Source: Nemertoderma westbladi (Eukaryota; Animalia; Xenacoelomorpha). Taken from it: a stretch of 64,000 bases of DNA. The translations under genes were made by a program, and so were the position numbers. Positions within the stretch are counted from its first letter, which is position 1. Every line of letters begins with the position of its first letter. The notes under the pieces were generated by a model. The model did not search any database, had not been told where the DNA came from, and saw only the letters and a program-made list of their open reading frames with translations. Positions 3,781 to 41,522 of the stretch are shown one piece after another. The stretch lies in NCBI GenBank assembly GCA_032718475.1, contig JAUCBJ010007673.1, forward strand, positions 1 to 64,000. The letters run 5' to 3'.

Positions 3781-3868
3781 CTCCCCGCGATGTAATCTCC
3801 TGGTCTAATAGAAAGTCCTTTTGTTGTGGTCGGATAAAATCTTTGCGGCAATTTTGGGCTTTTCTTCC
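3739..3868 (-). CDS. PHM: PHM-like copper monooxygenase, exon 6 (GKKSPKLPQRFYPTTTKGLSIRPGDYIAGRCTYYNNRNERVVNG); later exon(s) lie off-window
   Basis: Acceptor tttcag at 3869 and donor GTAGGT at 3738; phase matches the previous exon. Resembles the PHM segment GKxxPxxPQxFY...I.xGD.+A.RCT. Confidence 0.9.
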
Positions 3869-8523: not shown

Positions 8524-8534
8524 ATAACAGTCAT
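8524..8534 (+). promoter_or_regulatory. BEL-1 non-canonical primer-binding site ATAACAGTCAT, complementary to LTR positions 7761-7771
   Basis: Abuts the LTR end, lacks the TGG of a tRNA PBS, and is the exact reverse complement of ATGACTGTTAT at 7761-7771 and 18490-18500. Confidence 0.75.
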
Positions 8535-8564
8535 TGACTTTATTGCAGTAAGCAATAAAGTTGA

Positions 8565-17910: not shown

Positions 17911-17980
17911 CTGTTTAGAGTATTTACGTATATTAGAAACTGTGATTTTGTATATTTTATAGACTCAAATCCCATTTTCT

Positions 17981-17988
17981 GGGAGCGG
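17981..17988 (+). promoter_or_regulatory. BEL-1 polypurine tract GGGAGCGG
   Basis: Immediately precedes the 3' LTR, after a T-tract. Confidence 0.85.
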
Positions 17989-20475: not shown

Positions 20476-22401
20476 TATAGAATTATATTCCCTAAATGCC
20501 GTGGATTTTCAAAATTTTATTTTATTCGAATTAACTTTGTAAAGATTGCTTTGAGTTCTCATTAGTATTGGTTCTATCTATTGTGTATCTATCGGTCAAG
20601 TGGTTCAGTAGCTCAGTTGGTAGAGCGTTGGAAATTATATGTGTAGTAGGTATCGAGTTCGAATCCTAATAAGTGCGAATTATTTTTTGTGCAGAATTTC
20701 AACTCATTTAAATTAACCGCTACAAATTAATTGCATTTGTCTGTACCAATGAGACCGTAGTTATTTGATTGTAACCAATGTTGTGTAAGTTATATATTAG
20801 CTGGACCAATAAGCTATCTTTAAAACCTTGTTAGAACCTATAGAACAATCGAGAATTTTCTCGATTGATTGCGGCACAAATTTGGTATAAAAAGGTGCGA
20901 TTTCGTTCATTAATAAAATCTACTTTAGTTCACTTACTACTACTTTAGTATACATTATCTTATCAATATTCTGTCGTGCTTAGTTTATTCTCAGATTACA
21001 TTGTATTATAATTGTATCTTCTGTAATAAAGTCAGAATATTCTCTCAGCTTTTCTGTTTTACTATGGTTTCACTACGGTGAACAAACTCGGGGACAGGAT
21101 GGCCAGCTAGAGATCGGGCCGCAGCAATGAACGGGAACATCACGGGAATGTAGACGAGAGACAACCCGCAATACCATTTAGAGTTATTCGCCCATCGCCT
21201 GAAAGGTTAGACAGCGTTCGATCCTTGCTACCTAAGTGTAAGACCAAAAGATCAAAGGTAGACGTAGTGACACGCTGTAAGCCTAAAATTACATCATAGG
21301 GACTGTACTGTCTTGATTCAGGAAAAAACCGCAGTAGACCTTCATATTCCTACGGGAGGAGAGAGAGCAGATACTAGTACGCAGATAGGACGTAGGCACA
21401 CCGGTACAAGGCATACACATTGGTTAGGGTGCAGCAAACTGTACGCTTAACTCTTGCTAAGTACAGGTGTGTGTGCGACTATTTGCAGTACGACCGTGTC
21501 TATTACATCAGAACTTGTAGGCTAGGGGGTTGCTGTGTTTTCACCTGAATTGGGATTGTACCGTTCAGGCGGTAGGGCAGTTTACGCTAGGCGCAAATAA
21601 ATTGAGGCTATCAGGGATATACTAACATCTACCGTGTCCCCGCCAACGCCCTAATAGGAAGTTACCCGGACTACCTGGGTGACTAAAATTCTGGATAGGA
21701 GCCAGGATAGCTATTAGTACCCGTACGCCTACAGTAGTAAACTAACACATCTCTTCTTAGTATCAGGGACCTGGTACCTAAAATTGCCGAATTCTGGGCG
21801 TAGTATTAACCTTATGCCTGAATTTGAGTCCTGGAAATACGCAAGAGGGGAAGGAACCTTATCATTCGTGAGTATTAGACCTACAAGTTATAAAATTAGA
21901 ATATTCGTAAAATGCACACCGTACCCAGTAATTATATATGTGAAGGAGCAAAACTGCTTTGACCGTTCAGAATTAACACGCGCGCGTTAGAAATTATTTA
22001 CACCTCAAAATATATAAAATTAACTTTCGTCCTTACTGCACTTTGCTCGCTAGTTAGACATCTCCAAATATCTGCCTCTGTACCTAGCTAGCGTCTCTTT
22101 GCCCAACCATATAAATCACACCGCGGCAAAGTATACGAGCCCCTTAGTCCGTCAGTGAGTCAGCCTGATTTTAGGATTCGCTGCGCGGGATTTTGTTTTA
22201 TCGAAGTTTGTCTGCTCGTAGACTGTTTTCTGCCTCACCGGTTAAAAGAGATCGATACTGCAATATATTCGCTTACTTAGGGTTTACTGTTTTGGTGAGA
22301 AGGTCGGATTTATGATTTGATTTACAAACTTTACAGTAGGATATTGCAGGTATTGTTACCGTCTCTTCCGATAGTAGGAATAGGCGTATCTCTCCAATTT
22401 A
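20476..22401 (+). repeat. BEL-2 5' LTR (1926 bp), termini TATAG...ATTTA
   Basis: Direct repeat of 38361-41522 once the nested insertion is removed. TATA-like TATAAAAAG at about 20886. Confidence 0.95.
20602..20676 (+). ncRNA. tRNA-derived Pol III promoter-like cassette inside the BEL-2 LTR (second copy at 38487-38561); not a functional tRNA
   Basis: A box TAGCTCAGTTGG with D-arm GCTC/GAGC and B box GAGTTCGAATCC. Anticodon and acceptor stems are degenerate. Confidence 0.7.
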
Positions 22402-22412: not shown

Positions 22413-23211
22413 TTTTACTGAACTACGGTTCGGTAGGACTAAAGTTATTTGAAAATTCTGTATTTTGAGGTAAAAATTTGTATTTGATTAGCTAAGTGCT
22501 AATTTTTTGAAATAAAATTTGATTTGAACCGCGTGTAAAATATTTTTGGAATTGAATACCGGTGTTTAAAAAAGGGTTTAAATACCATATTGTACCGGTA
22601 CAAAATTTTCGTAAAGTAAAACCTAACTCTTTTGTTTTTTCAGGATTCAGAACTCATTTCTAGGCTGTAACGGGAGCAAGACCGTGTTTAGCAAGTTTGG
22701 GAGATAGATAACTCAACAACTTTGGTTGGGAAAATCGCGTTTCGTCCGCAACGTTAAAAACGGAAAGGTTCACGTCCGGTTTGTATCTGGGAATCTGTTT
22801 TTCTGGAGAATTATTGGAGTGGGTGAGTTTGAAAAGTTGCATAAATAAGTTAGGCATTACCGTATTAGTTAAAATTATTGTGGGTTCCACTGTCTCAAGT
22901 ATTTATGCATTCCGTACGATTTCTTTGTTCATTGCTGAATTAGTCCGTATTATTGTATTTAATTTACCTTTTGATAACGCATATCGTTATCCGATTTATT
23001 TGTTGTAAAATTGGCCGCTAGGCTAATTTTATTATATACTTATTCCGTGACATTTATTTGCTGTAAAATTGGCCGTTTAGGCTAATTTTATCCATCTGCT
23101 ATAAAATCGGCCGGTAGGCTAATTTTATATGACTGTAATTAGTACCGTTTTATACAAATACGGTAAACTCGATACTTTGACACTCACTTCACTTGACTTA
23201 CAACTACCGAA

Positions 23212-26200
23212 ATGAGTGACAAACAAGACTATACGAAGAATACACAAACCGACTATGACTCATGTGACGGAGATAAGTCAGCAGCGGAAGAACAACAGGG
23301 GAAGACTCGCGAGCCTACCGAACCTACACCGTGTGCGTCACCAGTACATCCAACGGGAGTACCGGATGCCGTAGTACGAGGCGACGGCAGGACCGAGGAC
23401 TTTCTAACTGTTCCGCAACCTAGATATAGGGAAACGGAAATGGTAAGTTCAGCAGGAAGCACAGAAAGTGTGGTTAGAAGCGTCGGTGGATACATGGCGC
23501 ATATAACCAGGAGTATTGGAGAAGGCCAACGCATATTAGATGGGTTGACCGCTCCGATGTCTCGATTCGAGTTCTACACCCTCCAGGTTAGAGTACAGAG
23601 TAAAGTATATAAGTCCGTAGATAATCTAGTTGGCCTACAAGATCTAGCTAGACAGAGACAGGACATGGATACTCAACTTAGAATCCTCGAGAAACTAATG
23701 ATCACTAGAGAGAAACTAATTCAGTTTAAGTCGACGATTAGACAGATACAACAGGAACAAGCGGACCAGTTGTTAGGTGAGTCAGTTTCGGACGAATTAT
23801 TACAACCCGAGGAAGAACAGGAACTGTACCGACTGGATGGACAATTGGAACACCTGACGGACCACTTACGCATGTGCGGCGAAGACGTCGGCGATTTGGA
23901 AACCGTGCCGGAATACACGAGGGAAACTTCATTTGCACAAATCGAATCGGCACCGGGAATACTAAATCAATCATTGGTAAGTATTCGTAGCGAAATATGC
24001 GAAGGAAGTATAGTCACGTCAGAAGTTGCTCGACAACAGCAGCAGTTCTACAGACAGCAACACGAGATGGAAGAACAAACTCAACTGCTAATGATACAAA
24101 CAGCAGTAGAGGAAGAGAAAATACGTGTTGCGAATGTAGCGAGAATCTCTCATCTGCAGGAACAAGCCGAACTCGAAGCGGCCGAAATGGAAAGGTTAGA
24201 GTTGGACATTGCCCAACAAGCGGCAGCGACCGAGTTAGCGCAACGAACGGCAACAGCCGAGTTAGAGCGACAAACGGCAGCGGCAGCGGCAGAGTTAGAG
24301 CGACAAACGGCTGCGGCAGAGTTAGAGCGACAAACGGCTGCGGCAGAGTTAGAGCGACAAAGATTAGTTTCGGAAGCCAGAGTCGAGATGAAGACACGGC
24401 AAATAAAAGCCCAACAAGCGATACGACAAGCAGAGTTCGAGGCGCAACAACAACAAACGGAACAACGAGAAAAGGAAGTTAAACTTCGTTTCGAACTTGA
24501 AAAAAGGGCGAGAGAATTAGCCGAAACCAAGGAAAATCTGGATCTTCTAGCCCGCGACCGATCGATGAGATCTCGTGACGGACATGATTTGGACCAGTTA
24601 GAGGTAAGACATCGCCAAATTCAGGAACGGAAGAAGGAAGGAAGCGTAGGAGCACCCAGACGGGAACGACAATTAATAAAAGACGTGTGTCAACGATTCC
24701 CACAGGTAACTCATATGTTTGCACCGGTTACGACTAAGGAACCTGTTTCGATTGCGGGTAGTAGTGATATTTCTCCTATCCATGGTGCGACGGAACACAG
24801 GTTTGTTATTCCGGACGAGTTTATACCGCCAAGAGCAGCGTCGTCGCCTATTCCGAGAGTCAAGGTAAGTAACCCACCGATTACAGATCGTAGTAGTTTA
24901 TTGACCGGACCTGCGCTACTGACGACAAAACAGGTGAGTCCACCTTTGACACCTAAACCCGTTACACATTACGCTTACCCAATGACGTTTCGACCTACAA
25001 GGCCAGCGGTTTCAAATGCTGTCATCCGACCACCGGTCCAGTTTACATCGCAATCTACGACTTCGAGGAAGACTTGTGAGCCTACCGAACAACGGAGAAC
25101 AGTGGATACGCGACCGTTTAACCAGTTCACATCGCAATCTACGACTTCGAGGAAGACTTGTGAGCCTACCGAACAACGGAGAACAGTGGATACGCGACCG
25201 TTTAACCAGTTCACATCGCAATCTACGACTTCGAGGAAGACTTGTGAGCCTACCGAACAACGGAGATCAGTGGACGATGTTCCGAAACGAGCCGTTAGAA
25301 TTCGAACGACGCAACGGACGCGAGCACGTCGACCACCATATCCAGATGATAGTAGTACTTCGAGCGAATCGGATTACCCGAAACGCGAGGTATTTAGAAC
25401 AGGGGCGGCCGATGAATATAAACGCGAGCGTTCAGACAACTCCTTTGCAGACAATCCTCCACAGAATACACCAACACAGAAGGCGTTACAACCAACGGAC
25501 GCAATTAGTACACAACAGTTCGCCGACATTCTGCGACCAGTTGTCAACAAGTTGGCTCAGATCGAGGAGCGTCTGGAGGAAGTTCAAACCGATAGTTCGA
25601 GGAACACCGAATTCGAACACAATAGACACCCGAAGGCACCACAAAGACCGGTACCTTCAAACCCCACATCGTATCAGGGAAAAGCGCCCAGAAGGGAGAA
25701 CATCAACCAGGTTACCAACCAAGGACGCGAAACTCTGAACGTTGCCGAGGAGATAGCGAAATTCGCAGCCAGACAAGGATTGCCGGTACAACAACCACCG
25801 AAGTTCTCCGGTAGCTCAAAACACTGGCATACCTTCGTAGACTATATCGAATCCCAGATCGCCGTGTGCGCCTTTACATCACGGGAGAAGTTCAATTACC
25901 TGCTCCAAACGTTGTCAGGAGAACCTAAACGTTTGGCGGAGACCTTCGTCGGTGTACCGGACGCTTTCGAACTAGCGTACGATCGTTTGACTTCGATATA
26001 CGGAGGTACAGTGAGTATGGCCAGGTCAGTAATAGAGGAACTCTGTAAGGGAGGGGCTATCACTAAACCCGTCGACTTACTAAAACTGGCTGACGAGATT
26101 AAGAACGCTATCACTACCTTAAGATCAATTGGACAACTTGATTACGGGAATACCCCTACAGTTCTATTAAAGATAATAGGACGACTCCACCATCGACTTC

Positions 26201-28151
26201 GTCGGGAGTGGAGGAAGGTCGAATACCAGCGAGAGGAGCGGGGAGGATTCTTAAAATTAGAAGATGTGTACCTTTTAATATCCAGGGAGGCGGTAGTAGA
26301 AACTCGATCTAACTATACCGACCAGCACATCGTGGCAGAAGGGATCACACTGCCATCCTCCAACCGACAAAAACCCCAGACAACATCCACAAAGACGGCC
26401 ACTTACGCCACACCGACGGAATCACGACAATTCTCAGACGGTAATAGAGTATCTGCGCCCATTGGGACGAAACAGACGAGACAGCAACTCAGCGCCGACT
26501 TCAACGGCTGCCAATACTGCGAACATCTAGGTAAGCGGTATATTGGTCACAAGTTACGAGGTTGTCGACAATTTCGCGAGTTGAACTCGGAAGAACGACG
26601 GCTGCAGATACGGCCACTGGACTCTTGTTGGCGGTGTACGCGACACGGACACGTCCGTAAGGATTGCCCAAATACCGACACTTGTCCATCCTGTGGACGC
26701 AACCACGACGGTCTGCTCCTCACAGACAGCCACACGCCGACGAAACGCTTCGCCAGGGAACACCCGGAAGCAGCAGCGAGATGTGATGCAGCCTACCGAA
26801 AACGAGAATCGAAAACGACTCCAACTTTCGTGACCCATATTGAGGATTGCTTCTCAGAACAATCCGGATCGTCGGACGAAGAATCAGAAAACGACGACGA
26901 ATATTCTAATGGAAACGAACAACCGTCAATCGCGCTCCTGACCACTGACCAACTGAAGGGATTCAGTGTAATCCCGATTAAGGTTACTGGCACAAAGGGG
27001 AGTAAGAGGATTTACGCGATTCTAGATTCAGCCTCATCTCACAGTTACGTGGATGAAAAGATAGCTGACGTCGTAACGGATCTCAGACAAGGTAAACACG
27101 TCAGTTATACAGTAAGTAGTATGCATGGCCAGCGTGCAATACCAGTGACACGAGTTAAGTTGGACTTAGACTCTCTTCTTCCAAAATCGCAACACAGCGA
27201 GAGGGAGAGATCTTTGTTACCCTTTAGAGATCTAACCTTTGCGGCCACGAAGGACTTTAGTAACCTACTAGGTCCAGTGCCGGAACAATCTCTGGAGGAC
27301 CGTAAGTATTTCAGACACCTTGGTGTACCCGAATGTCCTGTCAATTATAGATCGGTAGCAATGCTGATCGGGACGGACCAATTCAACCTACATCAGGTGT
27401 GGGAAACCAGACCGTCGGCAGTTGTAGCAGGAAACGCATACGCCTGCAGAACGCCGATAGGGTGGTATACTCGAGCGCCTGTGCGCACACTAGACGTAAG
27501 TGACGAGGAAGACGATGTACAGAGTACATGTAGTTTATTAACTACAAATTCAATTCATTCCTTTTCACACGACATGGACCATACTACACTACAGTCGACA
27601 AAACATGACAGACGTGTAACTAGTATGATAAGTCACAAGGAGCAGCTAACCCACAAGGTGAGTTTAGAACTTGGGGAGAAGACGAATCAGCTAGAGATTC
27701 CATCGACGACAGATGATAGGCTTGCGAGTCTACCTACCCCAATAACCTCAACAGTGCCCGTCGATATCGATGATGACGCGTTGAGAAATCATCAGTTGGA
27801 ACAAGCCGCCTTGGACAAAGAATTAACGGAGAAGACTATCAGGTGGTTAGAACAAGATACAGCTGAACCTGGTAGCTACGAACCTTGCATGTCGGAACAG
27901 GAGAAACAATCTCTAAAGATCATGGAAGATACTATCCGACAGACGGAGGACGGACATTACGAGGTGGGGATGTTATGGCGTAGCCAAAGTCCTAAACTTA
28001 TAAATAACTACCCACTGGCTTTAAGACGTCTACACTCAATACGACAACGTCTATTAAAGGACGAGAAAGCCCATCTGCAGTACAACACTCAGATGGAGAC
28101 GTATTTGACTGAAGGATACGCTATCCGAATGACTAACCCGGAGCGAGTACC
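23212..28151 (+). CDS. gag: BEL-2 Gag-protease part of a Gag-Pol polyprotein, interrupted at 28152 by an insertion
   Basis: DUF1759-like PKFSG...W..F...EKFNYL segment, zinc knuckles (CQYC..H..C, CWRC..GH..C, CPSCGRNH), protease ILDSAS and pre-RT segment GHYEVGMLW..NNYPLALRRL. Confidence 0.92.
25038..25275 (+). repeat. 84-bp in-frame tandem repeat (about 3 copies) in BEL-2 gag
   Basis: QFTSQSTTSRKTCEPTEQRRTVDTRPFN repeated. Confidence 0.9.
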
Positions 28152-29336
28152 TAAAGAGGTGAGGTCTCTATAGGGGTGCTCGGAAAAGGCGGCGGCGGAC
28201 TCGTGAGGGTCTGGGGGCACGTTAAATCTGGGTTTATAGTGCTAGGGAGATACTTAAGGCCCTCGTGTCTAACGAACCATGAATTGCCATGGTGCCGTGG
28301 TTCCGTCTAGTCGGCCTGTTGCCGTACTGCCAGTCCTGTACACAGTAGGGGTGGTGGCATGGCGTGATTTGTGGCTCATGTGGCGTGAACTATGTTTTGT
28401 ATGTGGGCGATCAGTGGCAGTTTGCTTGGGGCTTGGATGGTTCCATTGACCGTCAGCTGTTCCGTTTTTTTGATACTATATGTTATTGTCTCCATGTTCA
28501 GCTGATTGGTCTTTGGTGGCATTGGAAAAACCGTCGGGTCTTGAGCTTTCTGTTGCTGTGGGTACGTGAGTACACGTGATTGTATGTGTGGCCACTGCGA
28601 GTGGGTATGGGAACCCTTGCCAGTTGGACAAGACGCCGCTGGTATTAGTAGGACCATACTCTACTGCACCCCAGCATACTTTGTGCACACAAAGTTATTT
28701 TACCCTGTCGGTAAAATAAGGTACTCTCGACTCTTTTCGAGTTTCAGTCGATACAATTTTGTCCCTTCCGATTTTGTCTTTCCCGATTTTGACCTCGATT
28801 TTGTCTTACCCGATTATGTCCTCTGTGTGTGCATGGTATGTGTCAGATTTTGTGTTTACCGTAGTGTACTTGATTTCGTGAACATCTGTTGAGTACACGT
28901 GTACAGGACGGGTAAGTGGTTACTTGTTCCTAGCTTTCGAGTTAGTCAGTATTGTTGAGGAACGGTGTCCCCTCAATACTGCCGGCGAGGCAGGTGAAAA
29001 CGTGTCAATATTCCATGTTGGGTAGCGCAAGCCCGCTTGGGACAAGACCGTCGGTTAGGCCCAAGGGCGACCTTGGTGCTCGATCGCTATCGACTGGTCC
29101 ACCTGCCGGTTGACTCTTTGTTATACTTTGAGTTGGCTCAATGTACAGTCAGGCCACAGTAAGTTGACAGTAGCCGCTCATCTGGCTACACGTTCGACGA
29201 GCTGTGCCGGTGTGATCGGGGGACCGAAAACAGAACCCGGGAAGCATCGGGCCACCCTGCGGCCTGGTTTGGTTTGTCACCGGCCCCCAGGGTGGTGGAA
29301 AGGTGTCCGCCTCGTGGGTGCGCCTCGGGGAGGAGC
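28152..29336. mobile_element. Unclassified 1185-bp hairpin-rich insertion splitting BEL-2 gag-pol
   Basis: Flanked by CC on both sides. Its removal restores ERVPEGHKWTDQTYYLPHH in frame, paralleling BEL-3 ERVPEETPITERTYYLTNH. Confidence 0.85.
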
Positions 29337-32300
29337 CCAGAAGGACACAAGTGGACCGACCAGACATACTACCTGCCACATCACTATGTGAGACATCCCG
29401 ACAAACCAGATAAAGTACGCGTAGTCAATGACTGTGCGGCTCTGTTTGAGGGAATGTCCCTCAATAGTGAGTTGATGGATGGACCGAACATGAATAATTA
29501 TCTTATGGGGGTGATTATGCGCTTCCGTCAGCGTCAAGTAGCCTTTACTTGCGACGTTGAAGCGATGTTTCACCAAGTAAAAGCGTTAGAGCGAGACAGA
29601 GACAGTTTGCGGTTTCTCTGGTATCCGGAAGGGGACTTAAGTCTACCACCAGCGACTTACCAAATGCAAGTTCGCGTTTTCGGTGCCAGAGACAGCCCAA
29701 ATTGTACGATGTACGCCTTGAAGCAAGCCGCTAGAGATCAGAAACATCTGTATGACCCAGAGATAATTAGAATTGTAGAACGTGACTTTTACGTTGATGA
29801 CGGTTTACAAAGTTGCGACACAGTAGAACGTGCTACAATAGTAGCACATCAATTACGGGACTGCTTGGCGGGCGGAGGTTTTAACCTCACCAAATTCGCC
29901 TCAAACAGTGCCGAATTAGTTGACTCATTCGGAACTACTGAGCGTGGAGGAGGTGATATAGACCTAGAGTTCGAACCACTACCGACGACTAAGGTGTTGG
30001 GGCTCTTTTGGGACCCAAACACAGACAACTTTCGAGTGAAGGTGAGACTGGACAGTCAAGGGAACACGCTGACCAAGAGATCATGCTTGTCAAAATTGAG
30101 CCGATTGTTCGATCCGTTAGGATTCATCAGTCCAGTGATACTGCAAGCCCGCATTTATATGCGCAGTATATGGAAGGATGGACTAACATGGGACGAGCCG
30201 ATCTCATCAGACCAAGTGGACTTATGGAAGACCTGGGAGGCGGAATTGTCTTCGCTAGAGGATTATTTCATACCCAGGGTTTACTTTCCATTACAGAGTA
30301 CATTTCCTGACAACTTGGAACTACACTGTTTTTCTGACGCCAGTGACAACGGTTTTGGTGTGGCAGCGTATTTGCGCAGACAAGTAGAATCAGACGAGTT
30401 CGATGTTTCGCTCATTACTTCTAAGGCTAAGACCATGCCTACTAAGTATATGACGACACCACGAGCCGAGCTACAAGCCGCAACCCTGTCAACCACCATC
30501 GTGAACCTCATACAGACAGAACTACAGTCGAGTTTACAGATATTTTATTGGACTGACGCGACGTTAGTTTTATTTTACATAAACAACGACACTCTCGAAT
30601 TCAAGACATTCGTAGCTAACCGTCGCGCGGAAATTCTAGACCGTTCAATAAAAGAGGATTGGCGACATTGCCCCGGACCACAAAACCCAGCTGATATTGC
30701 GTCGCGAGGAATGATGCCTGAGGAATTCTGTAAACCGGAGAACAAAGAGTTTTGGCAACACGGACCCCAGTTCTTGCAGAAATCGACACAAGATTGGCCT
30801 CCGTTATACGACAACAAGTCCAACACTATTCCCAAGGACGCCGAAATCAAAAAACCAAAAAGGGGGAAGACAAAGAAAAAGACAACGGCGGCAAAACTCA
30901 AGAAAAAACCGAAGGCGAAATGGAAGGATATAACTTCAAAGGTCAAGAGAGGAAGACTTGCGAGCCTTTCTACACCAGACATATCGCCAGACGGTCAACC
31001 AGACACGTTACCAGACGGTCAACCAGACATGTTACTAGACAGCCAACCAGACATTTTGCCAGACATATCACAAAATGTTCCACCAGACGCTAGTAACACA
31101 CTGACATACAGTAAAGCCGCAGTTTCCCTATTGGAGCGGCCTTCTATTGACAAACAACCAGATACGTTACCAGACGTATCGCCAGACACATTACTAGACA
31201 GTCGACTAGACATTAGTAATGTATCGACTAACAATAAAGCCGCAGTTTCCCTATTGGAGCGGCCTTGTATTGACAAACTACCAATTTTGACACACTTGAG
31301 CAACCATAAGCATGGTGAAACCTCATGTATTACAGATGTGGGTAGTACCTACGCTAATGTAAATACAGGTGTTACTTTGCGCTCAAGAGACATACCGAAC
31401 TTACAACCTACGGTGAGACCTGGGATTAATGTCGGCAGGAAAATAAGTTTACCGAAACCTGCTGACCCCATAGAGTTCAAACCACCATTAACGATCGACT
31501 TACAAAGTACCGACAATCAAGGTAAGAAGACAAAGAAGGACAAATTACTTGTAGACCCGGACGGATCAACAGTCAACAAGGGAATACTTACCGGCGGACC
31601 CGTGGGCCCTTCTAGTAATTCAAAACCTTCCAAATTCTCCATTGACTTACCTGATGACGTCACAAATACTCATGTCGACCGTATTGTAAACCTAACAGAT
31701 TCTTGGTCAAACGCTTGCCGAAAATTAGCGTGGATTGTACGTTTTGTACAATACGTTAAAGGCAAACGTGACTTTACACGTCGACTTACATTGGCTGAGA
31801 TTGACAGGTGTGAGATTAAATTAATTCGCCATTACCAACTGCGATATTTCGCGCGCGAATTCACATCTATACATCAAGGTCAACCAATCAAGTCGTCACC
31901 GATACTGAGTTGGAGTCCGATTATTTACAATGGCTTAATTTGTCATAAATCTCGGCTTCAAAACATTGACTTTAACACAAACTTTAGGTACCCAATAATA
32001 ATACCGCAACACCACGAACTACAACGTGCAATGATACTGGACGCACATCTACATCTGAAACACGCTGGAAGACACCACTGTCTTTCCTACTTACGTACTA
32101 GATTTGTATTAATTAGACCCAGTAAAGCATTAAGTTCCGTGACACGTACGTGTATTATTTGTAAAAAGGTACATTCTAGAATAGGTACCCAAGAAATGAG
32201 TGAACTACCACAAGCACGACTTCAAGCATTCAGACCACCTTTTACAGAGACTGGAATTGATTGCTTTGGTCCCATACATACGAAACGTGGACGTATACTA

Positions 32301-33182
32301 GTAAAACGCTGGGGACTGATTTTCACATGTATGTCCAGTAGGGCAGTTCACATTGAACGTGTGATGGATCTTTCCACCAACGCGTTTATACTAGCACTGC
32401 GGCGATTTATCGCTAGACGCGGACTAGTAAAATGCTTGTACTCAGACCAAGGGACAAACTTTGTTGGTGCTCGGAATGAGATTGCTAGAGCCTTTAAGAA
32501 ATTAGATCATGATCAAATCTCGAACGAACTGCAACCTCACAAGATTGTTTGGAAGTTCAATCCTCCAGATAGTCCTTGGAGAGGCGGAGTCTGGGAGAGA
32601 TTGATTAGATCTATCAAAACGGCCATGGCAAAGGTCATTCCAGTAAACCACATATTAACAGACGACCAACTGACAACATTGTTTGTTGAAATCGAGGCAA
32701 TACTAAATACTAGACCAATAGTATTAGTACCCGATGACAAACAATCTCAGTTCGCTTTAACACCAGCACACCTGCTTATGCAGGCACCGACCACATTGAC
32801 GCCGATTTCCATTCCAATGGAAAGCGATAGCTACGGTAGAAAAGCGTGGAAAATCACGCAACTACTGGCTAACAAATTCTGGGAAATATGGCAAAACCAT
32901 TATTTGCCCTCTATTTCTGCCAGAACAAACTGGTACAATAACACCCGCGCATTAAAGCCGGGAGATCACGTGCTGTTGGCAGAAGTGAATCTAAAAAGAC
33001 GCTTCTGGATAACAGGTGTCATTTTAGCCACACATCCATCTATGGATGGAGTGACAAGAACTGTGACGGTACGGACAATTGACGGTCGTACAGTAGACAG
33101 ACCGACTCAACGTCTCGTACTTCTTGAAGAGACTCGTAACGAGTCTGGAGATTACAAATCTCCACCTAATACTAGTAAATAA
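29337..33182 (+). CDS. pol: BEL-2 Pol: reverse transcriptase, RNase H, integrase
   Basis: RT: KVRVVNDC, DVEAMFHQV, FGARDSP, FYVDD. RNase H: LHCFSDAS, PRAELQAA, WTDA, NPADIASRG. Integrase: H..H..CIIC, GIDCFGP, SDQGTNF, GGVWERLI, then a DUF5641-like tail. Confidence 0.95.
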   Translation, partial: PEGHKWTDQTYYLPHHYVRHPDKPDKVRVVNDCAALFEGMSLNSELMDGPNMNNYLMGVIMRFRQRQVAFTCDVEAMFHQVKALERDRDSLRFLWYPEGDLSLPPATYQMQVRVFGARDSPNCTMYALKQAARDQKHLYDPEIIRIVERDFYVDDGLQSCDTVERATIVAHQLRDCLAGGGFNLTKFASNSAELVDSFGTTERGGGDIDLEFEPLPTTKVLGLFWDPNTDNFRVKVRLDSQGNTLTKRSCLSKLSRLFDPLGFISPVILQARIYMRSIWKDGLTWDEPISSDQVDLWKTWEAELSSLEDYFIPRVYFPLQSTFPDNLELHCFSDASDNGFGVAAYLRRQVESDEFDVSLITSKAKTMPTKYMTTPRAELQAATLSTTIVNLIQTELQSSLQIFYWTDATLVLFYINNDTLEFKTFVANRRAEILDRSIKEDWRHCPGPQNPADIASRGMMPEEFCKPENKEFWQHGPQFLQKSTQDWPPLYDNKSNTIPKDAEIKKPKRGKTKKKTTAAKLKKKPKAKWKDITSKVKRGRLASLSTPDISPDGQPDTLPDGQPDMLLDSQPDILPDISQNVPPDASNTLTYSKAAVSLLERPSIDKQPDTLPDVSPDTLLDSRLDISNVSTNNKAAVSLLERPCIDKLPILTHLSNHKHGETSCITDVGSTYANVNTGVTLRSRDIPNLQPTVRPGINVGRKISLPKPADPIEFKPPLTIDLQSTDNQGKKTKKDKLLVDPDGSTVNKGILTGGPVGPSSNSKPSKFSIDLPDDVTNTHVDRIVNLTDSWSNACRKLAWIVRFVQYVKGKRDFTRRLTLAEIDRCEIKLIRHYQLRYFAREFTSIHQGQPIKSSPILSWSPIIYNGLICHKSRLQNIDFNTNFRYPIIIPQHHELQRAMILDAHLHLKHAGRHHCLSYLRTRFVLIRPSKALSSVTRTCIICKKVHSRIGTQEMSELPQARLQAFRPPFTETGIDCFGPIHTKRGRILVKRWGLIFTCMSSRAVHIERVMDLSTNAFILALRRFIARRGLVKCLYSDQGTNFVGARNEIARAFKKLDHDQISNELQPHKIVWKFNPPDSPWRGGVWERLIRSIKTAMAKVIPVNHILTDDQLTTLFVEIEAILNTRPIVLVPDDKQSQFALTPAHLLMQAPTTLTPISIPMESDSYGRKAWKITQLLANKFWEIWQNHYLPSISARTNWYNNTRALKPGDHVLLAEVNLKRRFWITGVILATHPSMDGVTRTVTVRTIDGRTVDRPTQRLVLLEETRNESGDYKSPPNTSK

Positions 33183-33841
33183 TTAGGAGTTTAAAAATAG
33201 ATTTCCACGTACCTGTACACCGTAGTAAGGACAGCGGTAGAATTCCATTGTCTTTATATGTGAACATTGAGGGTAGTACCCTTATGTGTCACATAGGAGC
33301 GGGATTTGTAGGTATAAGAAATGGAATTCTACTTGGAACTCACAATATTGAGACATTTTCGAAATTTTAGACAATCCATTTGGATTTGAAAAATTTTTAA
33401 AATTTTCTCCAGTGAATAGATTTCAGGGTACAGTCGGGTGGAACTTAAAATTAGAGAAACAAGAGAGGAAGACTTGCGAGCCTTTCTTAAAATTTTAATT
33501 AAATTTTACACGGTCTTGTTTCAATAAGTTACGTCAAAATAGACTCCCCTATATTTATTACTAATTCTTGACTGCTTATTTTCTGATAATAGTTTGGGAT
33601 CAAAAAGTGAGTATTTTAGACTCACAGCCAGTTTAGCCCAAAATTCGTTTTTATTTCGGCAAAAAATTTTAGATAAGAAGCAGCGTGTCATTAAAGAAAC
33701 CCTAGATCTTAGGCTATGGGTAGGAGGTTAGAGCGTTGTCGAGCCCAAAGGGCAGACGAAACTCTCACGTCTCCTCACAACTAACTACAAACTCTGTTGT
33801 ATTCCCTCTAGTAGTAATGATTATGTAACTACACCCTAATT

Positions 33842-36800
33842 ATGGAGAAAGGGATACAAGGAGAGCCGAGATGGGGATATGATATCCAAGAGGAGGCAGC
33901 AGCGCCATTCGAAAGATTTGGAGCCAAGGATTACACTATATTTGGTATAAAAGAATTATCGGAAAGTACAGCGAAACTCGCGAGAACTAAATATGACTCG
34001 AATGTATTAAAGAGAAGGCAAAACGCATTGAACGAAAGAATCGAAAGTTTGCGCCAAACCTTCAATGAACTTTACCCGTACGATGCTTTGTGTGACACGG
34101 GAGACATTAGCGAAGACCCCGATACTGAAATTAGTCGTTTGTATCATACCATGCAATACCTAAAGGCGCATGAACCTATGCCCGCGGTACGCGATGAATT
34201 CGATGGAATGCATCTTTACAGACGAACTCGAGGGGACGATAGAGAAACCAAGGAAGCATTTTCAGTTTATAAACTTTATTATCAATGCGGTTCTTGTATG
34301 CGCGAACAACGAAATGCGATTCCGATGCGTTTGAATAAGGAAAATCCCGAACCGATATTGGCGAGGTGTTCGAATCATCAACAACTACGCTACCAGGAAG
34401 GAGGGTATCCTTTATCGAATCCATATCATTCATTTGCTATGACCGGACCAAAGGCGGGAGAAACTGTCATTTACCCACCTAAGGTTGTTGAACCCGATGT
34501 ATTTGAACTTACGCTGGACGAGGCGAATCAGTCAACCCGCGAAAAGAAAGAAGCTCTTAGCCTATACAGAGCCTACAAGGCTTTCGAGAAAGGTGAGATG
34601 GAAGAATGGGGTGGAAGACTCGCGAGCCTACCTTGCCATTGGACGTCACACGATCAAACTTCAGCTAAGGAGATGACACCGGAAGTTTTCGAGAGCATAA
34701 ACTTTGCTCAAAACGTTATTCAGAGACTACAGATTGCATCCCCGGAGAGGCCAAGAGAAATGCAACCGTATAGTACTTCAACTACGAAACCATTGAGTAC
34801 GACACTCAATTTCCCTATTAGTATACCAGTCCGACAGGATACGACGTACGAAATACCCATCGTGGATCATCCAGAAATCATTTCAAACTTGGAGTTTCTT
34901 CCTGCAGTTGTTTTCAGCGATATGAGTAAGATATATGATTTACGTAGACATATTACTCAAAAGGTCGTGAACAACGTTCCACCTCATATCCAAGATTTTA
35001 AGGAACTGGATAGAGCTGGTGCCGACATAGCTCCGAGTAATCTGAAAGGATATCTAACCAAGACGATTCGTTTATGGATTGGAACCGGAACCTTCGAGTC
35101 GGATACGGATATTGCCGCAGATTGGCGAGGTAAGGTTATTCGTTTCGATGAGGATAAGGATATAGAGAAGATTTGGCAACCTTCGGAAGAATTGTTGGAT
35201 GAATGGACTAGGACGTTTAGATCGTTTCAGGAAAACGGTTATATGTTTTACGATAACGAGGGCGGCAGTCATCAGCAGAGTTTGACTTCTAAGACTATAC
35301 AGATTAGAGCGGCGGACGGAGTCCTGCACGTTTTCAGTAGACAGAGGAGCGACAAACGAATGCCGATACCTCCAGCGAATACAAAGCGACACCATCTTAT
35401 CACCGATATAGTAAAGAAGATGGACCAAGCTTGTAATATTGACGCTAGAATGCTACCGAAGATGGTAAGAAACATGATTTTAGATAAAACTGTTGTAAAG
35501 GTTGGATCAGGAGTAAGGGAGGATCTAATTAGCGACTTCGCCGGCATGACGGACAGCGATGACCGACTACCGACACCATACGTCGACACTCGACCTCTTA
35601 TTCTGTGGTCTATAGAACAGGGATATTTTCGTGAGTATAATACTCAGAAGACTGGCACTGGATACATTTCCTACCTGTTATTCAATTGGGATTATAAGGA
35701 AGGTAAAAGGAACAAGTATATTGAAACTTATGGAGAAGGTGATACTCCAGATATGAGTGAGTTTGAATCACAGCTTAAATGGAGAGGATGCGTGTATTGG
35801 GCTATTACGTCACCTCCAAGAGCGGTCTTACAATATTATTTAGCGATAGAGTCGTCAGTGAATGTTTGCCTAATCGCCGACATTGTGTCTCGGACTCTCA
35901 AAAGACATCCACTTTGTCTCGGAGAAGATCATACGTTCTACATGGAAGGGAGAATTCGTACCGACGTGTTTAGACGATTCCTTGAACCCTTCTACAACTC
36001 CGACGCTCAGTGTAATGCCTTTACTCGAGCAGGATTTAGTATATTTCGAGACGTGTATCTTCGCTGTGCGGGATCTCTTATCGAAAGACCATCTATGTTT
36101 ACATTGTTACCCTATGAAGGAGAACGTATCGTGGAGATTATGGATGAATCACGGCAGACGCGCGCGCCTATCGGTCACCTTGGTGATGAATTCGAAGTAA
36201 CTACTACGATCGCCGACGATCCTTTAGAGGAACTTCTTGAGATTGAAAGGAACCTCCCGAAGAAATCTCAGACGGAGATTCGACAACTTGAAGCAACAGA
36301 TGCTATAGTTTGCCTACAACCTTCAGAAACCTACCAACCCATAGACCCAGATGATTACGATTATAGTATGGGAGGAAGCGCTCGACCGATTGGAGATCTT
36401 ATATACGAACGAGTGTGGTACCCTGCCAATACGATGTGTAATAAATGTGGCGTCGCTGGACATCATATGGCAAAGTGCAGTGGAAAGCACATTACTACGA
36501 CTCAGCTAATCTGTGGATGGTGTGGGGATCAAGGGTCTCATACCTTTTATACTTGCTGGAGATTTATGGCTCAATGTACTTACTGCAATATAAAGGGACA
36601 TCGAGCATCTGAATGCCAACTGAGAGACATACCTTATGAACACGAATCTGTAAAACTCGTGAGGAAGTTATTTGATGAGTGGGAAGATTTGGCCGACGAA
36701 CATGTATCGGCACAAAGAAGACGGTTTCCGATGAGAGCGCATCTCGGATTTTGGGCGGTAAATCCTCAAACGATGATGTCGGAAGGATATATCTCCGCTA

Positions 36801-37567
36801 TGCCCCAATATGACGAACTTATCGAGGTTGTCGATATTTTGCCCCACTACAGCGGATTCCGAGTGGTGCGCGAGTATCTGTTACAAATTCACCCGGATAA
36901 CAAAAACACGTGGAATTTTCAGAAAGTCGTTAATCGGATTACGTATGGTGAATTCGATCGTTTCCGAACTGAAAAGCGGAACAAAGGAGCTTGGTTAACC
37001 GTCGCATGGGCGTACCGAGCCGCGTTTTACCACAAACGTATACGAGCGAGCGTATTCGAGGAAGAAGAGGTCCTAGAGGCGACAAATATACCAGCCACTC
37101 CGGTTGCGCCGTCTGCACGTCACCCTCGAGAGGACGGACAGGGTAGGATCATACGGGTCCAGAAAGTGGGCCAACAATTGAAGAAAATTATTAATGTAGA
37201 AGAACGCAAGGGAGTTGAGCCGACTATTCGAGTTACTCGGGATACGGTATCACTTCCAAGAGAACCGGTAGGAGGATCGGGACATACACCAGCTGATCAA
37301 CAGGGGGCGCAAGCTACTCTTGGGTCTGCGTCGTCCACTCCTCGCGCGTTCCCAGACGTTCTACCAACTGTAGCGACAACTGATCGGTCACGAGGAATTG
37401 GTCGAGGTTTTGGGATGCCAAATAGACGAATTTGCGAGGAAATAGTTGCACCGTCTCTCAACGTCCCAAGTAAACCAGTGACTCGCCCCATTAGTCCCAT
37501 ATCGCGAGCAAAGTCACCTGTGCGCAGTTTTCGAGGACGCGGCAGGGCTCGATCTACTAAGCGATAA
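33842..37567 (+). CDS. BEL-2 ORF3 (1241 aa): putative DEDDy (WRN/EXD/mut-7-like) 3'-5' exonuclease with an N-terminal CCCH-like finger and three C-terminal CCHC knuckles
   Basis: ExoI FYDNEG, ExoII KVGSGVREDL, PYVDTR, ExoIII-like QYYLAIE. Knuckles CNKCGVAGHHMAKC, CGWCGDQGSHTFYTC, CTYCNIKGHRASEC. Same motifs in BEL-3 ORF3. Confidence 0.8.
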   Translation: MEKGIQGEPRWGYDIQEEAAAPFERFGAKDYTIFGIKELSESTAKLARTKYDSNVLKRRQNALNERIESLRQTFNELYPYDALCDTGDISEDPDTEISRLYHTMQYLKAHEPMPAVRDEFDGMHLYRRTRGDDRETKEAFSVYKLYYQCGSCMREQRNAIPMRLNKENPEPILARCSNHQQLRYQEGGYPLSNPYHSFAMTGPKAGETVIYPPKVVEPDVFELTLDEANQSTREKKEALSLYRAYKAFEKGEMEEWGGRLASLPCHWTSHDQTSAKEMTPEVFESINFAQNVIQRLQIASPERPREMQPYSTSTTKPLSTTLNFPISIPVRQDTTYEIPIVDHPEIISNLEFLPAVVFSDMSKIYDLRRHITQKVVNNVPPHIQDFKELDRAGADIAPSNLKGYLTKTIRLWIGTGTFESDTDIAADWRGKVIRFDEDKDIEKIWQPSEELLDEWTRTFRSFQENGYMFYDNEGGSHQQSLTSKTIQIRAADGVLHVFSRQRSDKRMPIPPANTKRHHLITDIVKKMDQACNIDARMLPKMVRNMILDKTVVKVGSGVREDLISDFAGMTDSDDRLPTPYVDTRPLILWSIEQGYFREYNTQKTGTGYISYLLFNWDYKEGKRNKYIETYGEGDTPDMSEFESQLKWRGCVYWAITSPPRAVLQYYLAIESSVNVCLIADIVSRTLKRHPLCLGEDHTFYMEGRIRTDVFRRFLEPFYNSDAQCNAFTRAGFSIFRDVYLRCAGSLIERPSMFTLLPYEGERIVEIMDESRQTRAPIGHLGDEFEVTTTIADDPLEELLEIERNLPKKSQTEIRQLEATDAIVCLQPSETYQPIDPDDYDYSMGGSARPIGDLIYERVWYPANTMCNKCGVAGHHMAKCSGKHITTTQLICGWCGDQGSHTFYTCWRFMAQCTYCNIKGHRASECQLRDIPYEHESVKLVRKLFDEWEDLADEHVSAQRRRFPMRAHLGFWAVNPQTMMSEGYISAMPQYDELIEVVDILPHYSGFRVVREYLLQIHPDNKNTWNFQKVVNRITYGEFDRFRTEKRNKGAWLTVAWAYRAAFYHKRIRASVFEEEEVLEATNIPATPVAPSARHPREDGQGRIIRVQKVGQQLKKIINVEERKGVEPTIRVTRDTVSLPREPVGGSGHTPADQQGAQATLGSASSTPRAFPDVLPTVATTDRSRGIGRGFGMPNRRICEEIVAPSLNVPSKPVTRPISPISRAKSPVRSFRGRGRARSTKR

Positions 37568-37609
37568 AAGGGAGGGCAAGGGTGGACGGAAGACTCGTGG
37601 GCCTTTCTT

Positions 37610-38140
37610 ATGATTTGTGATTTATTTTGAATTATATGTTTTATATTTAGAAAATTTAGTAAACTTATATTTTATATTTGTGCTTATTTCGAACTTATGC
37701 AATTTGTATTGTTCCGAATTTATGAAATTTAGAAATAAGAACTCATATTTAGTAAACTTATATTTAGTAAGAATTTATATTTTATATTTACGTGATTATT
37801 TCGAACTTATGCAATTTATATTATTCTGAACTTATGCAATTTATATTGTTCCGAATATTATGCAATTTATATCTTATAAGCAGTATTTGTATTTACAGTG
37901 AAATAGAAAGTTTTATAGATAGAAAATTTGTGCCCAGAAAGACTCATATTTGTAATTATTCCAAACTTATGCAATCTACATTTAGGTACGAAAGTATTTG
38001 TAATTACTTGAATTTATGCAATATTTGAGATGCAATAGTAGATGGAAGACTCGCGAGCCTTTCTTATTGTTTTCATTTATTTGTATTTGTAATTGTTTGA
38101 ATTTATGCAATATCTGAGATGCAATAGATTTATATTGGTG
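37610..38140 (+). repeat. AT-rich degenerate tandem repeats (GAACTTATGCAATTTATATT) in the BEL-2 3' UTR
   Basis: The motif recurs many times between the ORF3 stop and the PPT. Confidence 0.7.
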
Positions 38141-38360: not shown

Positions 38361-41300
38361 TATAGAATTATATTCCCTAAATGCCGTGGATTTTCAAAAT
38401 TTTATTTTATTCGAATTAACTTTGTAAAGATTGCTTTGAGTTCTCATTAGTATTGGTTCTATCTATTGTGTATCTATCGGTCAAGTGGTTCAGTAGCTCA
38501 GTTGGTAGAGCGTTGGAAATTATATGTGTAGTAGGTATCGAGTTCGAATCCTAATAAGTGCGAATTATTTTTTGTGCAGAATTTCAACTCATTTAAATTA
38601 ACCGCTACAAATTAATTGCATTTGTCTGTACCAATGAGACCGTAGTTATTTGATTGTAACCAATGTTGTGTAAGTTATATATTAGCTGGACCAATAAGCT
38701 ATCTTTAAAACCTTGTTAGAACCTATAGAACAATCGAGAATTTTCTCGATTGATTGCGGCACAAATTTGGTATAAAAAGGTGCGATTTCGTTCATTAATA
38801 AAATCTACTTTAGTTCACTTACTACTACTTTAGTATACATTATCTTATCAATATTCTGTCGTGCTTAGTTTATTCTCAGATTACATTGTATTATAATTGT
38901 ATCTTCTGTAATAAAGTCAGAATATTCTCTCAGCTTTTCTGTTTTACTATGGTTTCACTACGGTGAACAAACTCGGGGACAGGATGGCCAGCTAGAGATC
39001 GGGCCGCAGCAATGAACGGGAACATCACGGGAATGTAGACGAGAGACAACCCGCAATACCATTTAGAGTTATTCGCCCATCGCCTGAAAGGTTAGACAGC
39101 GTTCGATCCTTGCTACCTAAGTGTAAGACCAAAAGATCAAAGGTAGACGTAGTGACACGCTGCAAGCCTAAAATTACATCATAGGGACTGTGGGGCGAGC
39201 CACGAAGTGAGTGAGCCTTAGCGTAGTGGTACCATTAATCAACCTGTCGTTCTGTCGTTCTGTCGTTCTGTCGTTCTGTCGTTCTGTCGTGTTCAATTTT
39301 AAACGTTAATAACTCAGCCAATCTTTGATGAAATCTATCCAAACTTGGTACACATGTTGTTTGGCAAAAGTTTAGAAATTTTCCAAGTAGAATTTCCGTG
39401 TGGCCTTCGAGAAGCTAAGATAATAGCAGTTAATTAGTTAATTAAGTTGATTACGGTGAAAACACAATTTTCAACCTGCCTTTTAAAGGAAATTAATTGT
39501 TTTACAGTATAAGATTTAAATAATTATAATTAAAAATTATACAGATGTAATCCACATACGCCATTCTATTATAGTTTTTAATTAGTTCAAGTGATTTGCT
39601 TTAATAATTGTGTCTTTAATTGATCTAAAGTAATTAAAACGGCATAAAAAATGGATTCTCATTAAATACTGATCATTTATTGGCCAACTTGCAAGTTGGC
39701 TGGTACATAGATGGGGGATGTGTGTGTAAGGGAGCCAGTTGCTGGGAATGCCAGTGGAGGGGGGTTGTATGTAACTAGCCACACGGCTGCCAGCTAGACC
39801 TAACGAGATTGAAACCTGCATTCCCTACCTCCTATTACACTATAGAGTCTGTGTTCTTTAGTCTCAGGTAATAGACAGATCTCATTTAATGATTGTCAGT
39901 CAATAAGATTACCACTGCAGAAGGCTTATATCCAAAATTGTTTATTTCTCAAAATATTATGCTTATTATTTTTTGATGGGATTTCTGTGTATTTTAATTG
40001 TCTAAGTTTTCAGAGGCATTAACAGTATATTAAATAAATTATTTGAATATCATTCATTACTGCATCGACTGTATTTAGTACTGCGTAGATTATATTCCTA
40101 TAAACCACCTGGCTTCGCATATTGAACGTGCGATTGGAAATAAGTTCGTGCTACCTTCCGTGGGTGGTAGATGTCGCGGTTATGTATTGGTGGGTGGGAA
40201 GGGTGGGGGGGGGGGGGGGGTGGGGTGGGGTGGGGTGGGGTGGGGGTGCAGATTTAAAGGGCTGAACACGTACTGTCCCTCTTTTTTTGATTGATTGGCG
40301 GTGTGGTTAAATTTCTAAATTTTACTAATTTATAAAGTTAAATACTGATTTTGTGATACAGTCGCTCGATATTAATTTGTATCTCATAACTGGGCCTCGT
40401 GTTGCGCGAAGGCCCCACGAACGTGTACTGTCTTGATTCAGGAAAACCCACAGTAGACCTTCACATTCCTACGGGAGGGAGAGAGAGCAGATACTAGTAC
40501 GCAGATAGGACGTAGGCACACCGGTACAAGGCATACACATTGGTTAGGGTGCAGCAAACTGTACGCTTAACTCTTGCTAAGTACAGGTGTGTGTGCGACT
40601 ATTTGCAGTACGACCGTGTCTATTACATCAGAACTTGTAGGCTAGGGGGGTTGCTGTGTTTTCACCTGAATTGGGATTGTACCGTTCAGGCGGTAGGGCA
40701 GTTTACGCTAGGCGCAAATAAATTGAGGCTATCAGGGATATACTAACATCTACCGTGTCCCCGCCAACGCCCTAATAGGAAGTTACCCGGACTACCTGGG
40801 TGACTAAAATTCTGGATAGGAGCCAGGATAGCTATTAGTACCCGTACGCCTACAGTAGTAAACTAACACATCTCTTCTTAGTATCAGGGACCTGGTACCT
40901 AAAATTGCCGAATTCTGGGCGTAGTATTAACCTTATGCCTGAATTTGAGTCCTGGAAATACGCAAGAGGGGAAGGAACCTTATCATTCGTGAGTATTAGA
41001 CCTACAAGTTATAAAATTAGAATATTCGTAAAATGCACACCGTACCCAGTAATTATATATGTGAAGGAGCAAAACTGCTTTGACCGTTCAGAATTAACAC
41101 GCGCGCGTTAGAAATTATTTACACCTCAAAATATATAAAATTAACTTTCGTCCTTACTGCACTTTGCTCGCTAGTTAGACATCTCCAAATATCTGCCTCT
41201 GTACCTAGCTAGCGTCTCTTTGCCCAACCATATAAATCACACCGCGGCAAAGTATACGAGCCCCTTAGTCCGTCAGTGAGTCAGCCTGATTTTAGGATTC

Positions 41301-41522
41301 GCTGCGCGGGATTTTGTTTTATCGAAGTTTGTCTGCTCGTAGACTGTTTTCTGCCTCACCGGTTAAAAGAGATCGATACTGCAATATATTCGCTTACTTA
41401 GGGTTTACTGTTTTGGTGAGAAGGTCGGATTTATGATTTGATTTACAAACTTTACAGTAGGATATTGCAGGTATTGTTACCGTCTCTTCCGATAGTAGGA
41501 ATAGGCGTATCTCTCCAATTTA
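38361..41522 (+). repeat. BEL-2 3' LTR, interrupted by a 1.2-kb insertion
   Basis: 38361-39191 plus 40427-41522 reproduce the 5' LTR. Confidence 0.95.
39192..40423 (+). mobile_element. Helentron-associated/DINE-1-like non-autonomous element B, inserted in the BEL-2 3' LTR
   Basis: Absent from the 5' LTR. Same termini as element A (GGGGCGAGCCACGAAG ... GCGCGAAGGCCCCACGAACG), a (CTGTCGTT)n microsatellite, a 3' hairpin, and TGT on both sides. Confidence 0.75.

Follow-up and report, generated by a model that had tools for sequence, protein, structure and literature searches.

Among retroelements, the systems closest to the motif reported here are the dimerization initiation site (DIS) of HIV-1, a pseudopalindrome that converts from a hairpin to an extended duplex with nucleocapsid protein (NC) (PMC7599994), and PAL1/PAL2 of Ty1 (PMC6844567). 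Our locus lies in a 64-kb stretch of DNA from Nemertoderma westbladi (contig JAUCBJ010007673.1, positions 1 to 64,000; the whole stretch is called the window below), in which a 20-nt motif is dispersed along a long terminal repeat (LTR) retrotransposon of the BEL/Pao group. As with DIS and PAL1/PAL2, the sequence is self-complementary in the genomic RNA and may form a hairpin or a more stable duplex, and the element encodes its own Gag/NC knuckles; unlike them, it occupies ten sites over ~15 kb, seven of them coding, and its dimerization is predicted. The packaging signals of MS2 and HBV (PMC6281560) likewise repeat a single sequence-structure motif many times over the genome and within genes, although theirs is a short loop motif set in varied stem-loops, whereas our motif is nearly constant over 20 bases and has a sense stem-loop of predicted low stability. 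A third point of comparison is provided by the targets of VANC in the Arabidopsis VANDAL elements (PMC5735166), which are also family-specific, share one orientation, undergo tandem amplification as well as gain and loss, and accompany an extra gene. The VANDALs, however, are plant DNA transposons whose 8-9 bp motifs are non-palindromic and lie in non-coding DNA, and a DNA-binding protein is here a candidate.

With regard to the third open reading frame (ORF3) of our element, a DEDDy ORF3 was already known from bdelloid LTR elements, Juno/Vesta having such a domain in a third ORF after pol (PMC5408684), and CERV of Cer1 comes from a spliced RNA (PMC10309623), as is likely for ORF3 here. Unlike these, the present ORF3 belongs to a BEL/Pao element and has three knuckles and a unique N-terminus; no dispersed cis-motif is reported in the available portions of either source. 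In the literature searched, in which subscription journals are thinly covered, we found no retrotransposon described as having a motif of this kind, and no work dealing with RNA signals that act in cis in BEL/Pao elements. The motif is a real and unusual feature, and a variation on the cis-acting elements known from retroelements.

The first-pass annotation of this DNA had listed ten copies, and all ten coordinates and sequences are correct. Its 20-nt pattern matches exactly nine times on the + strand and never on the - strand of the window, with ~1e-6 exact matches expected by chance per 16 kb, and a symmetric relaxed pattern with up to two mismatches matches ten times against 0.04 expected. 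Allowing up to four mismatches adds only three further places in the window (27715, 31593 and 36153), and thus the annotation had missed two copies, 36153 with three mismatches and the weaker 31593 with four. With the three copies of an 84-bp tandem repeat counted as one independent site, the total is 12 copies at 10 sites, all within the one BEL/Pao element:

23300..23319, + strand: exact match in the gag N-terminal region, in the KTREPT frame
25067..25254, + strand: three pattern matches (25067, 25151, 25235) in the gag 84-bp tandem repeat
27715..27734, - strand: variant copy between protease and reverse transcriptase (RT), most simply taken as inverted (two mismatches on -, four on +); RLASL on +
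30951..30970, + strand: pattern match in the linker of pol that follows RNase H, with 28 nt common to the 33467 copy
31593..31612, + strand: degenerate copy with four mismatches and symmetric changes at pairs 4-17 and 8-13
33467..33486, + strand: pattern match in the pol-ORF3 spacer
34613..34632, + strand: copy in ORF3 upstream of the exonuclease domain, 18/20 bases kept in a sister subfamily
36153..36172, + strand: degenerate copy with three mismatches and a symmetric change at pair 8-13, between the exonuclease domain and the knuckles
37588..37607, + strand: pattern match 20 nt past the ORF3 stop
38044..38063, + strand: pattern match in the 3' untranslated region (UTR)

By weight matrix the copies at 36153 and 31593 score 22 and 13 bits, the maximum over 20 shuffles being 11.7. 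Sequence alone would be expected to yield 0.017 matches like 36153 and 0.19 like 31593 in the element, which makes 31593 the weakest accepted copy. A covariance model built from the ten sites found no further copy with E<1 in the window. The stretch at 32067..32086, possibly a thirteenth site, has 8/8 pairs and the 5' arm of the motif with a different loop (six mismatches, E=1.1); it lies inside the integrase zinc-binding motif and was excluded from every count. Several known kinds of sequence were considered as identities for the motif and rejected: a tRNA primer-binding site (only 2/12 copies begin with TGG), a polypurine tract (no likeness to the sequence preceding the 3' LTR), a miniature inverted-repeat transposable element or footprint (target duplications around the copies were not seen), CpG decay (observed/expected 1.15), and an Egalitarian-type localization signal (Egl has an exonuclease-like domain), the known signals being longer, two-helix bulged stem-loops (PMC13186709).

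The reading frames are as had been annotated, KTREPT in gag (for the 84-bp repeat and 23300, KTREPT or KTCEPT) and RLASL in pol and ORF3 (27715, 30951 and 34613). Coding copies therefore use two frames, and while seven of the ten sites are inside ORFs, three are at non-coding places. The coding copies fall outside Pfam-matched domains, those of gag and pol in polar stretches (67th to 96th percentile) and those of ORF3 at the 44th and 56th percentiles. Flanks are mostly unrelated between copies of the 20-mer, the 3' UTR copies, which have flanks in common, and the pair 30951 and 33467 being exceptions. Given the encoded peptide, the codons used in the motif have a probability of 3.5e-4, and the sites are spaced more evenly than random (P for the coefficient of variation 0.017 with ten sites, 0.065 with the eight strong ones). 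The half-site can be written GRWAGRCT, and both the 27715 copy and the variant of the sister subfamily merely recombine letters already present in the half-sites.

An 8-bp sense stem closed by a YGYG tetraloop had been annotated for the motif, and no copy has such a stem. Five of the nine exact copies have 6/8 stem pairs on the sense strand and the other four have 7/8; A6 lies opposite C15 in all nine (at 9/10 sites, and in 11/12 copies overall), and pair 3-18 is broken at 5/10 sites. For the exact copies in isolation, the predicted sense-strand energies are -0.4 to -2.0 kcal/mol (-0.4 to -4.2 over the isolated 20-mers) and those of the antisense strand -2.8 to -4.9 kcal/mol, the latter folding better because the A.C mismatch becomes G.U there. 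Folding z-scores of eight sense 40-mers range from +0.75 to -1.73, and in a 220-nt context the sense hairpin has a probability above 0.4 at 3/12 copies, the antisense hairpin one above 0.8 at 4/10 sites. The loop bases G10 and G12 (loop positions 2 and 4) are invariant in all 12 window copies and at all ten sites.

The covariation score is 0.233, a value reached by 6/500 shuffles (a fraction not to be taken as a probability) and by none of the slid controls (at most 0.114), with both-sided changes at 3/8 stem pairs. Covariation is to this extent present, alongside a sense hairpin predicted at so few copies and a loop that is changed in the sister subfamily. Covarying changes stem solely from 27715, 31593 and 36153. 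The last two keep all six stem pairs, as do 11% of random mutants at three mismatches and 6% at four, and G.U at pairs 2-19 and 8-13 works on the sense strand only; 27715 read on the + strand breaks pair 2-19. The earlier statement that variants keep their pairing holds for most arm changes. With two mismatches on the - strand against four on the +, the 27715 copy casts doubt on the claim that all copies have the sense orientation.

The motif is absent from the LTRs of the element, from both copies of a second family, BEL-1, and from the rest of the window, of which the remaining 48 kb served as the host control. Equal frequency on the antisense strand or in host DNA, which the first-pass annotation had named as grounds for abandoning the idea, was not observed within the window (zero exact - strand matches in 64 kb; no copy in its other parts). 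Neither BEL-1 copy, both of which are damaged, yielded a dispersed motif when searched de novo, and these copies carry a homologous ORF3 core without the motif. Each BEL-1 copy does have one loosely motif-like palindrome with GGAAG arms near the end of pol (14878..14897; 54723..54742); these are single-copy and may be chance. An exact-pattern scan of viral contigs gave no match, and all 53 exact matches in metagenomes were single, without BLAST similarity to the element and without a second copy, and are thus attributed to chance.

Variation within the family was read from contigs of four sequencing runs (including X1, X2 and X4). Over 34560-34685 the four runs vary at 11 listed positions, all of them flanking the motif and none inside it; a single divergent contig type (in X2, with 16 differences in 84 bases) accounts for seven, and since the variant table seems to list only differences at least 31 bases from a contig end, motif differences of that contig are hidden. 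With the sister rows left out, 4/46 flank positions vary compared to 0/20 motif positions (p=0.31). In the sister subfamily itself, at ~81% identity, the 34613 site is kept at 18/20 bases with synonymous changes at positions 6 and 12, and at least 7/19 bases directly upstream differ; the whole divergent site is visible in one loose-end X1 contig, and an X4 contig confirms position 6. These two changes imply that the A.C mismatch and the YGYG loop can both be departed from. Conservation in related elements, which the annotation had put forward as a test, extends to one site of the sister subfamily, with its YGYG loop broken, and does not extend to BEL-1. Among the joints (15 of 65) and variant rows (40 of 854) listed, the joints 37911-38037 and 38072-37904 reveal a minority variant with an additional 3' UTR copy, and hence the copy number of the motif varies. 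In sum, the motif is a family-specific pseudo-palindrome, near-invariant at the nucleotide level. Its occurrence in two frames and in non-coding places, its restriction to one family, its rather regular spacing and a degree of covariation support a distributed, selected nucleotide-level signal.

A further property concerns pairing between copies. The central eight bases are self-complementary, with G.U allowed, in 12/12 sense copies and 4/12 antisense copies. Of the 4-mers differing from CGCG by at most one base, CGCG, CGTG and TGCG alone remain self-complementary, and the loops observed are exactly these three plus TGTG. All seven unpaired core changes in the window are of the G.U-tolerant kind (p=0.016), a ratio that becomes 7 to 1 with the sister variant added (p=0.07), and the excess of C-to-T changes in the loop goes from p=0.03 to p=0.125 once that variant is counted. 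Decay of methylated cytosine is an unlikely cause of the core changes, since the element has no CpG depletion. The predicted self-duplex energy is -15 to -24 kcal/mol at 9/10 sites, and 27715 is predicted to pair with the canonical copies at -25 to -30 kcal/mol, making it their best partner, as an inverted copy would be. With opening costs included, pairing is favourable at 6/10 sites compared to 3% of 227 random 20-mers. Thus, as in DIS and PAL, the core of the sense RNA is self-complementary and its duplex is predicted to be more stable than its hairpin.

This leads us to suggest, with a probability of roughly one in three, that the 20-mers are dispersed, dimer-linkage-like pairing sites on the sense RNA of the BEL/Pao element; for the sense-strand RNA-level readings taken jointly we would put the odds somewhat above even. 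On the folding models, each copy would be a barely stable hairpin, its top weakened by the A.C mismatch two pairs below the loop, that would rather pair with another copy, and once its core met a second copy the two would close up as a duplex, at most 20 bp long. The nucleocapsid knuckles of Gag may chaperone this pairing, as with retroviral DIS elements. Such links would hold two genomes together, or compact one, at points ~1.5 kb apart, and for a genome RNA of roughly twice the usual length many-point links would aid pairing-up and packaging. Tolerant linkers might gain new copies through short-patch copying and tandem duplication, with single copies presumably dispensable. Any-to-any pairing would explain why the sequence, beyond its shape, is constant, and with RNA pairing sites one would expect a weak hairpin, a core that tolerates G.U, covariation and a constant sequence, and an inverted copy would be useful.

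Several observations weigh against pairing sites of this kind. In known dimer signals there is a single site or a pair of sites, located in the 5' leader (PMC7599994, PMC6844567), whereas here there are ten dispersed sites and no copy between the 5' LTR and the start of gag. The TGTG copies (the three of the 84-bp repeat) self-pair at merely -8 kcal/mol, and a net gain from pairing is absent at 4/10 sites. The sister copy breaks the self-complementarity of the core and gains an arm pair, and the model can tolerate it as an exchange in which core pairs are given up and arm pairs won. Motif-to-motif deletions, which might perhaps be expected if copies pair, are absent among the 15 of 65 joints listed, and the covariation on the sense strand is owed to three copies, among them the two weakest. 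Moreover, any palindrome does well as a self-duplex, and therefore the energies cannot separate RNA pairing from a double-stranded DNA (dsDNA) site. Of the distributed RNA signal originally proposed, then, a nucleotide-level signal is supported; a stable sense hairpin for packaging is not predicted, one copy looks inverted, and the sister variant alters both a loop G and the A.C mismatch. RNA self-pairing and a dsDNA site each fit the data at least equally well.

The element spans 20476-41522 with a TTGTA target duplication at both sides. Its assignment to BEL/Pao follows from a Gag (DUF1759) preceding protease, RT, RNase H plus integrase with Pao-type domains, and from LTRs with a 5-bp target duplication. 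The best RT-RNase H relatives are 41-45% identical and have the same Pao-type domains, the named ones being from marine invertebrates and a fish. The main parts are as follows:

20476..22401, + strand: 5' LTR with TA...TA ends, preceded by TTGTA, without the motif
22823..33811, + strand: likely intron of a spliced ORF3 transcript, GT donor at 22823 and AG acceptor at 33810-33811, consensus-like
23197..28173, + strand: ORF of gag, protease and the start of RT (DUF1759, E=3.6e-11), with three Cys-His knuckle motifs seen in the translation
29163..33182, + strand: remaining pol (RT, RNase H, integrase) past a 1.2-kb insertion; Peptidase_A17, DUF5641, Integrase_H2C2
33842..37567, + strand: ORF3, with a unique N-terminal 350 aa, a DEDDy-type 3'-5' exonuclease domain and three CCHC-type knuckles; candidate trans factor
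38361..41522, + strand: 3' LTR, >99% identical to the 5' LTR, followed by TTGTA

The LTRs end in TA...TA instead of TG...CA, and a TGG primer-binding site is lacking directly after the 5' LTR. By eye, ~20604-20680 in the 5' LTR is a tRNA-like stretch with A- and B-box-like motifs; ARAGORN calls nothing there. The 3' LTR is split by a 1.2-kb insertion at about 39192-40423, the ends of which resemble, again by eye, the repeat that harbours the whole element (near 19977 and 42300). Another 1.2-kb insertion splits the RT region (28144-29353), contigs of all four runs also showing the insertion-free form; an Rfam scan over it found no intron family, and over 19900-42400 Rfam gave one chance-level match only (E=0.97). 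Elsewhere in the window, a BEL-1 element at 7262-19252 has LTRs that are 99.2% identical and by eye appears to be without most of RT, and a 49-bp satellite of 77 copies lies at the window start (5-3786).

A GT..AG joint from 22821 to 33811 occurs in a single contig of run X2, with a 29-letter short side; it fits a spliced ORF3 RNA, and X2, whose run type is guessed, could consist of RNA reads or include a processed copy. The copies at 34613, 36153, 37588 and 38044 are downstream of the likely acceptor at 33811 and would be retained in the spliced form. The summed X2 contig depth drops ~13-fold near 30.9 kb (30410-31477), beside an A-rich tract and the 30951 copy, although contigs are unable to show an RNA end.

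The DEDDy acidic motifs of ORF3 are conserved in a five-protein alignment, its atlas match is a cluster with DNA_pol_A_exo1 in 34%, and its model matches the folds of NrnC, EXD2 and WRN; this five-sequence model has a pLDDT of 37 and supports the exonuclease fold only (the single-sequence model has 29.5). The ORF3 knuckles resemble those of Air2 and Lin28. A Cx2C-x23-Cx2H motif is seen in the N-terminus (33842-34900), for which family searches returned no recognised or DNA-binding family and which has no similarity to the ORF3 of BEL-1. A word search gave no ORF3 homologue, a full-library search five weak matches, and the metagenome contigs no ORF3-related locus. In both BEL families the ORF3 combines a DEDDy exonuclease domain with three knuckles and ends in a conserved motif at the C-terminus (33842-37567, 49160-52216, 16563-17910), a build also seen in the unnamed proteins P0122, P0124 and P0125.

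Alternatively, the motif might be a weak RNA stem-loop read by protein, bound by the Gag knuckles for dispersed packaging or by those of ORF3 for Rev-/CERV-like export or RNA protection. The two invariant loop G residues would be the contacts. In a G6-G7-A8-G9 tetraloop, G7 and G9 are the bases held by HIV NC (PMC7599994), and ORF3, with its Air2/Lin28-like knuckles and DEDDy fold, likely comes from a spliced RNA as in Cer1 CERV (PMC10309623). The sense-only G.U pairs and the covariation also agree with such a hairpin, and the presence of 12 copies along the genomic RNA is in keeping with dispersed packaging signals; yet knuckles read a few bases rather than a near-invariant 20-mer, the hairpin is predicted at just 3/12 copies, the sister variant alters both a loop G and the mismatch, and BEL-1 has the same ORF3 domains with no dispersed motif. 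Moreover, a Rev/RRE-like element would be confined to the spliced-out part, and the four copies persisting in the spliced form cannot mark unspliced RNA. We consider this reading unlikely, though a serious contender. The same may be said, as an outside but credible prospect, of a dsDNA site for a dimeric protein with the half-site GRWAGRCT and a tolerant 4-bp centre, whose reader, a host factor or ORF3, might keep the internal region open as VANC does on VANDAL. Such a site needs no folding, and the 27715 copy, which matches the left/right asymmetry better when inverted, would follow naturally, as would variants that recombine known half-site letters. As with VANC targets (PMC5735166), the motif is family-specific (one other family, BEL-1, was compared), has 9/10 sites in one orientation, is amplified in tandem and varies in copy number, and the ORF3 N-terminus with its Cx2C-x23-Cx2H is unlike the ORF3 of motif-free BEL-1. 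By contrast, concentration in non-coding DNA, as for VANC targets, is not seen with 7/10 sites in ORFs; the LTR promoter is without any copy, the ORF3 N-terminus matched no DNA-binding family, no CpG depletion hints at methylation silencing, and the model does not require the symmetric double changes at 31593 and 36153 (pair-keeping in 6% and 11% of random mutants).

A bolder version of reading by protein, which we hold to be rather unlikely, has the motif as a self-recognition tag for ORF3, whose N-terminus or knuckles would bring the DEDDy exonuclease to the element's own chromatin or nascent RNA every ~1.5 kb, trimming small-RNA silencing complexes; by analogy this could be family-specific anti-silencing in an animal retrotransposon, a counterpart of plant VANC, and that too is rather unlikely. 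More improbable still is that the copies are by-products of RT template switching into tolerant linkers, kept partly for the short peptide RLASL, which we take to be an R-x-x-S-x-P-like site, and without function at the nucleotide level. The 28 nt common to 30951 and 33467, the common 3' UTR flanks, the three tandem copies, the minority variant with its extra 3' UTR copy, the synonymous nature of both sister changes in GRLASLP and the non-significant difference between flank and motif variation would all agree with this, but the 20-mer returns at sites whose surroundings are for the most part unlike one another, in two frames and three non-coding places, with codons of such low probability given the peptide, and the sister keeps 18/20 of them where at least 7/19 bases just upstream differ. 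Finally, the working strand could be antisense, a 5-6 bp hairpin with G.U acting on antisense RNA or on minus-strand cDNA during reverse transcription. That hairpin is the more stable one and reaches high probability at 4/10 sites; its loop, however, varies four ways, its closing pair is broken at 37588, and as DNA it would have only 0 to -1.7 kcal/mol, and we consider it very improbable.

RNA choice, dimerization and packaging are known in detail for few LTR retrotransposons, and a near-invariant 20-mer every ~1.5 kb is a small, sharply defined target for separating RNA linkage, hairpin and DNA site. If the 20-mers are indeed pairing sites that link the RNA at many points, they would show how an unusually long retroelement genome is handled, and if ORF3 reads the motif, this would explain what the so far puzzling DEDDy ORF3 does in retrotransposons.

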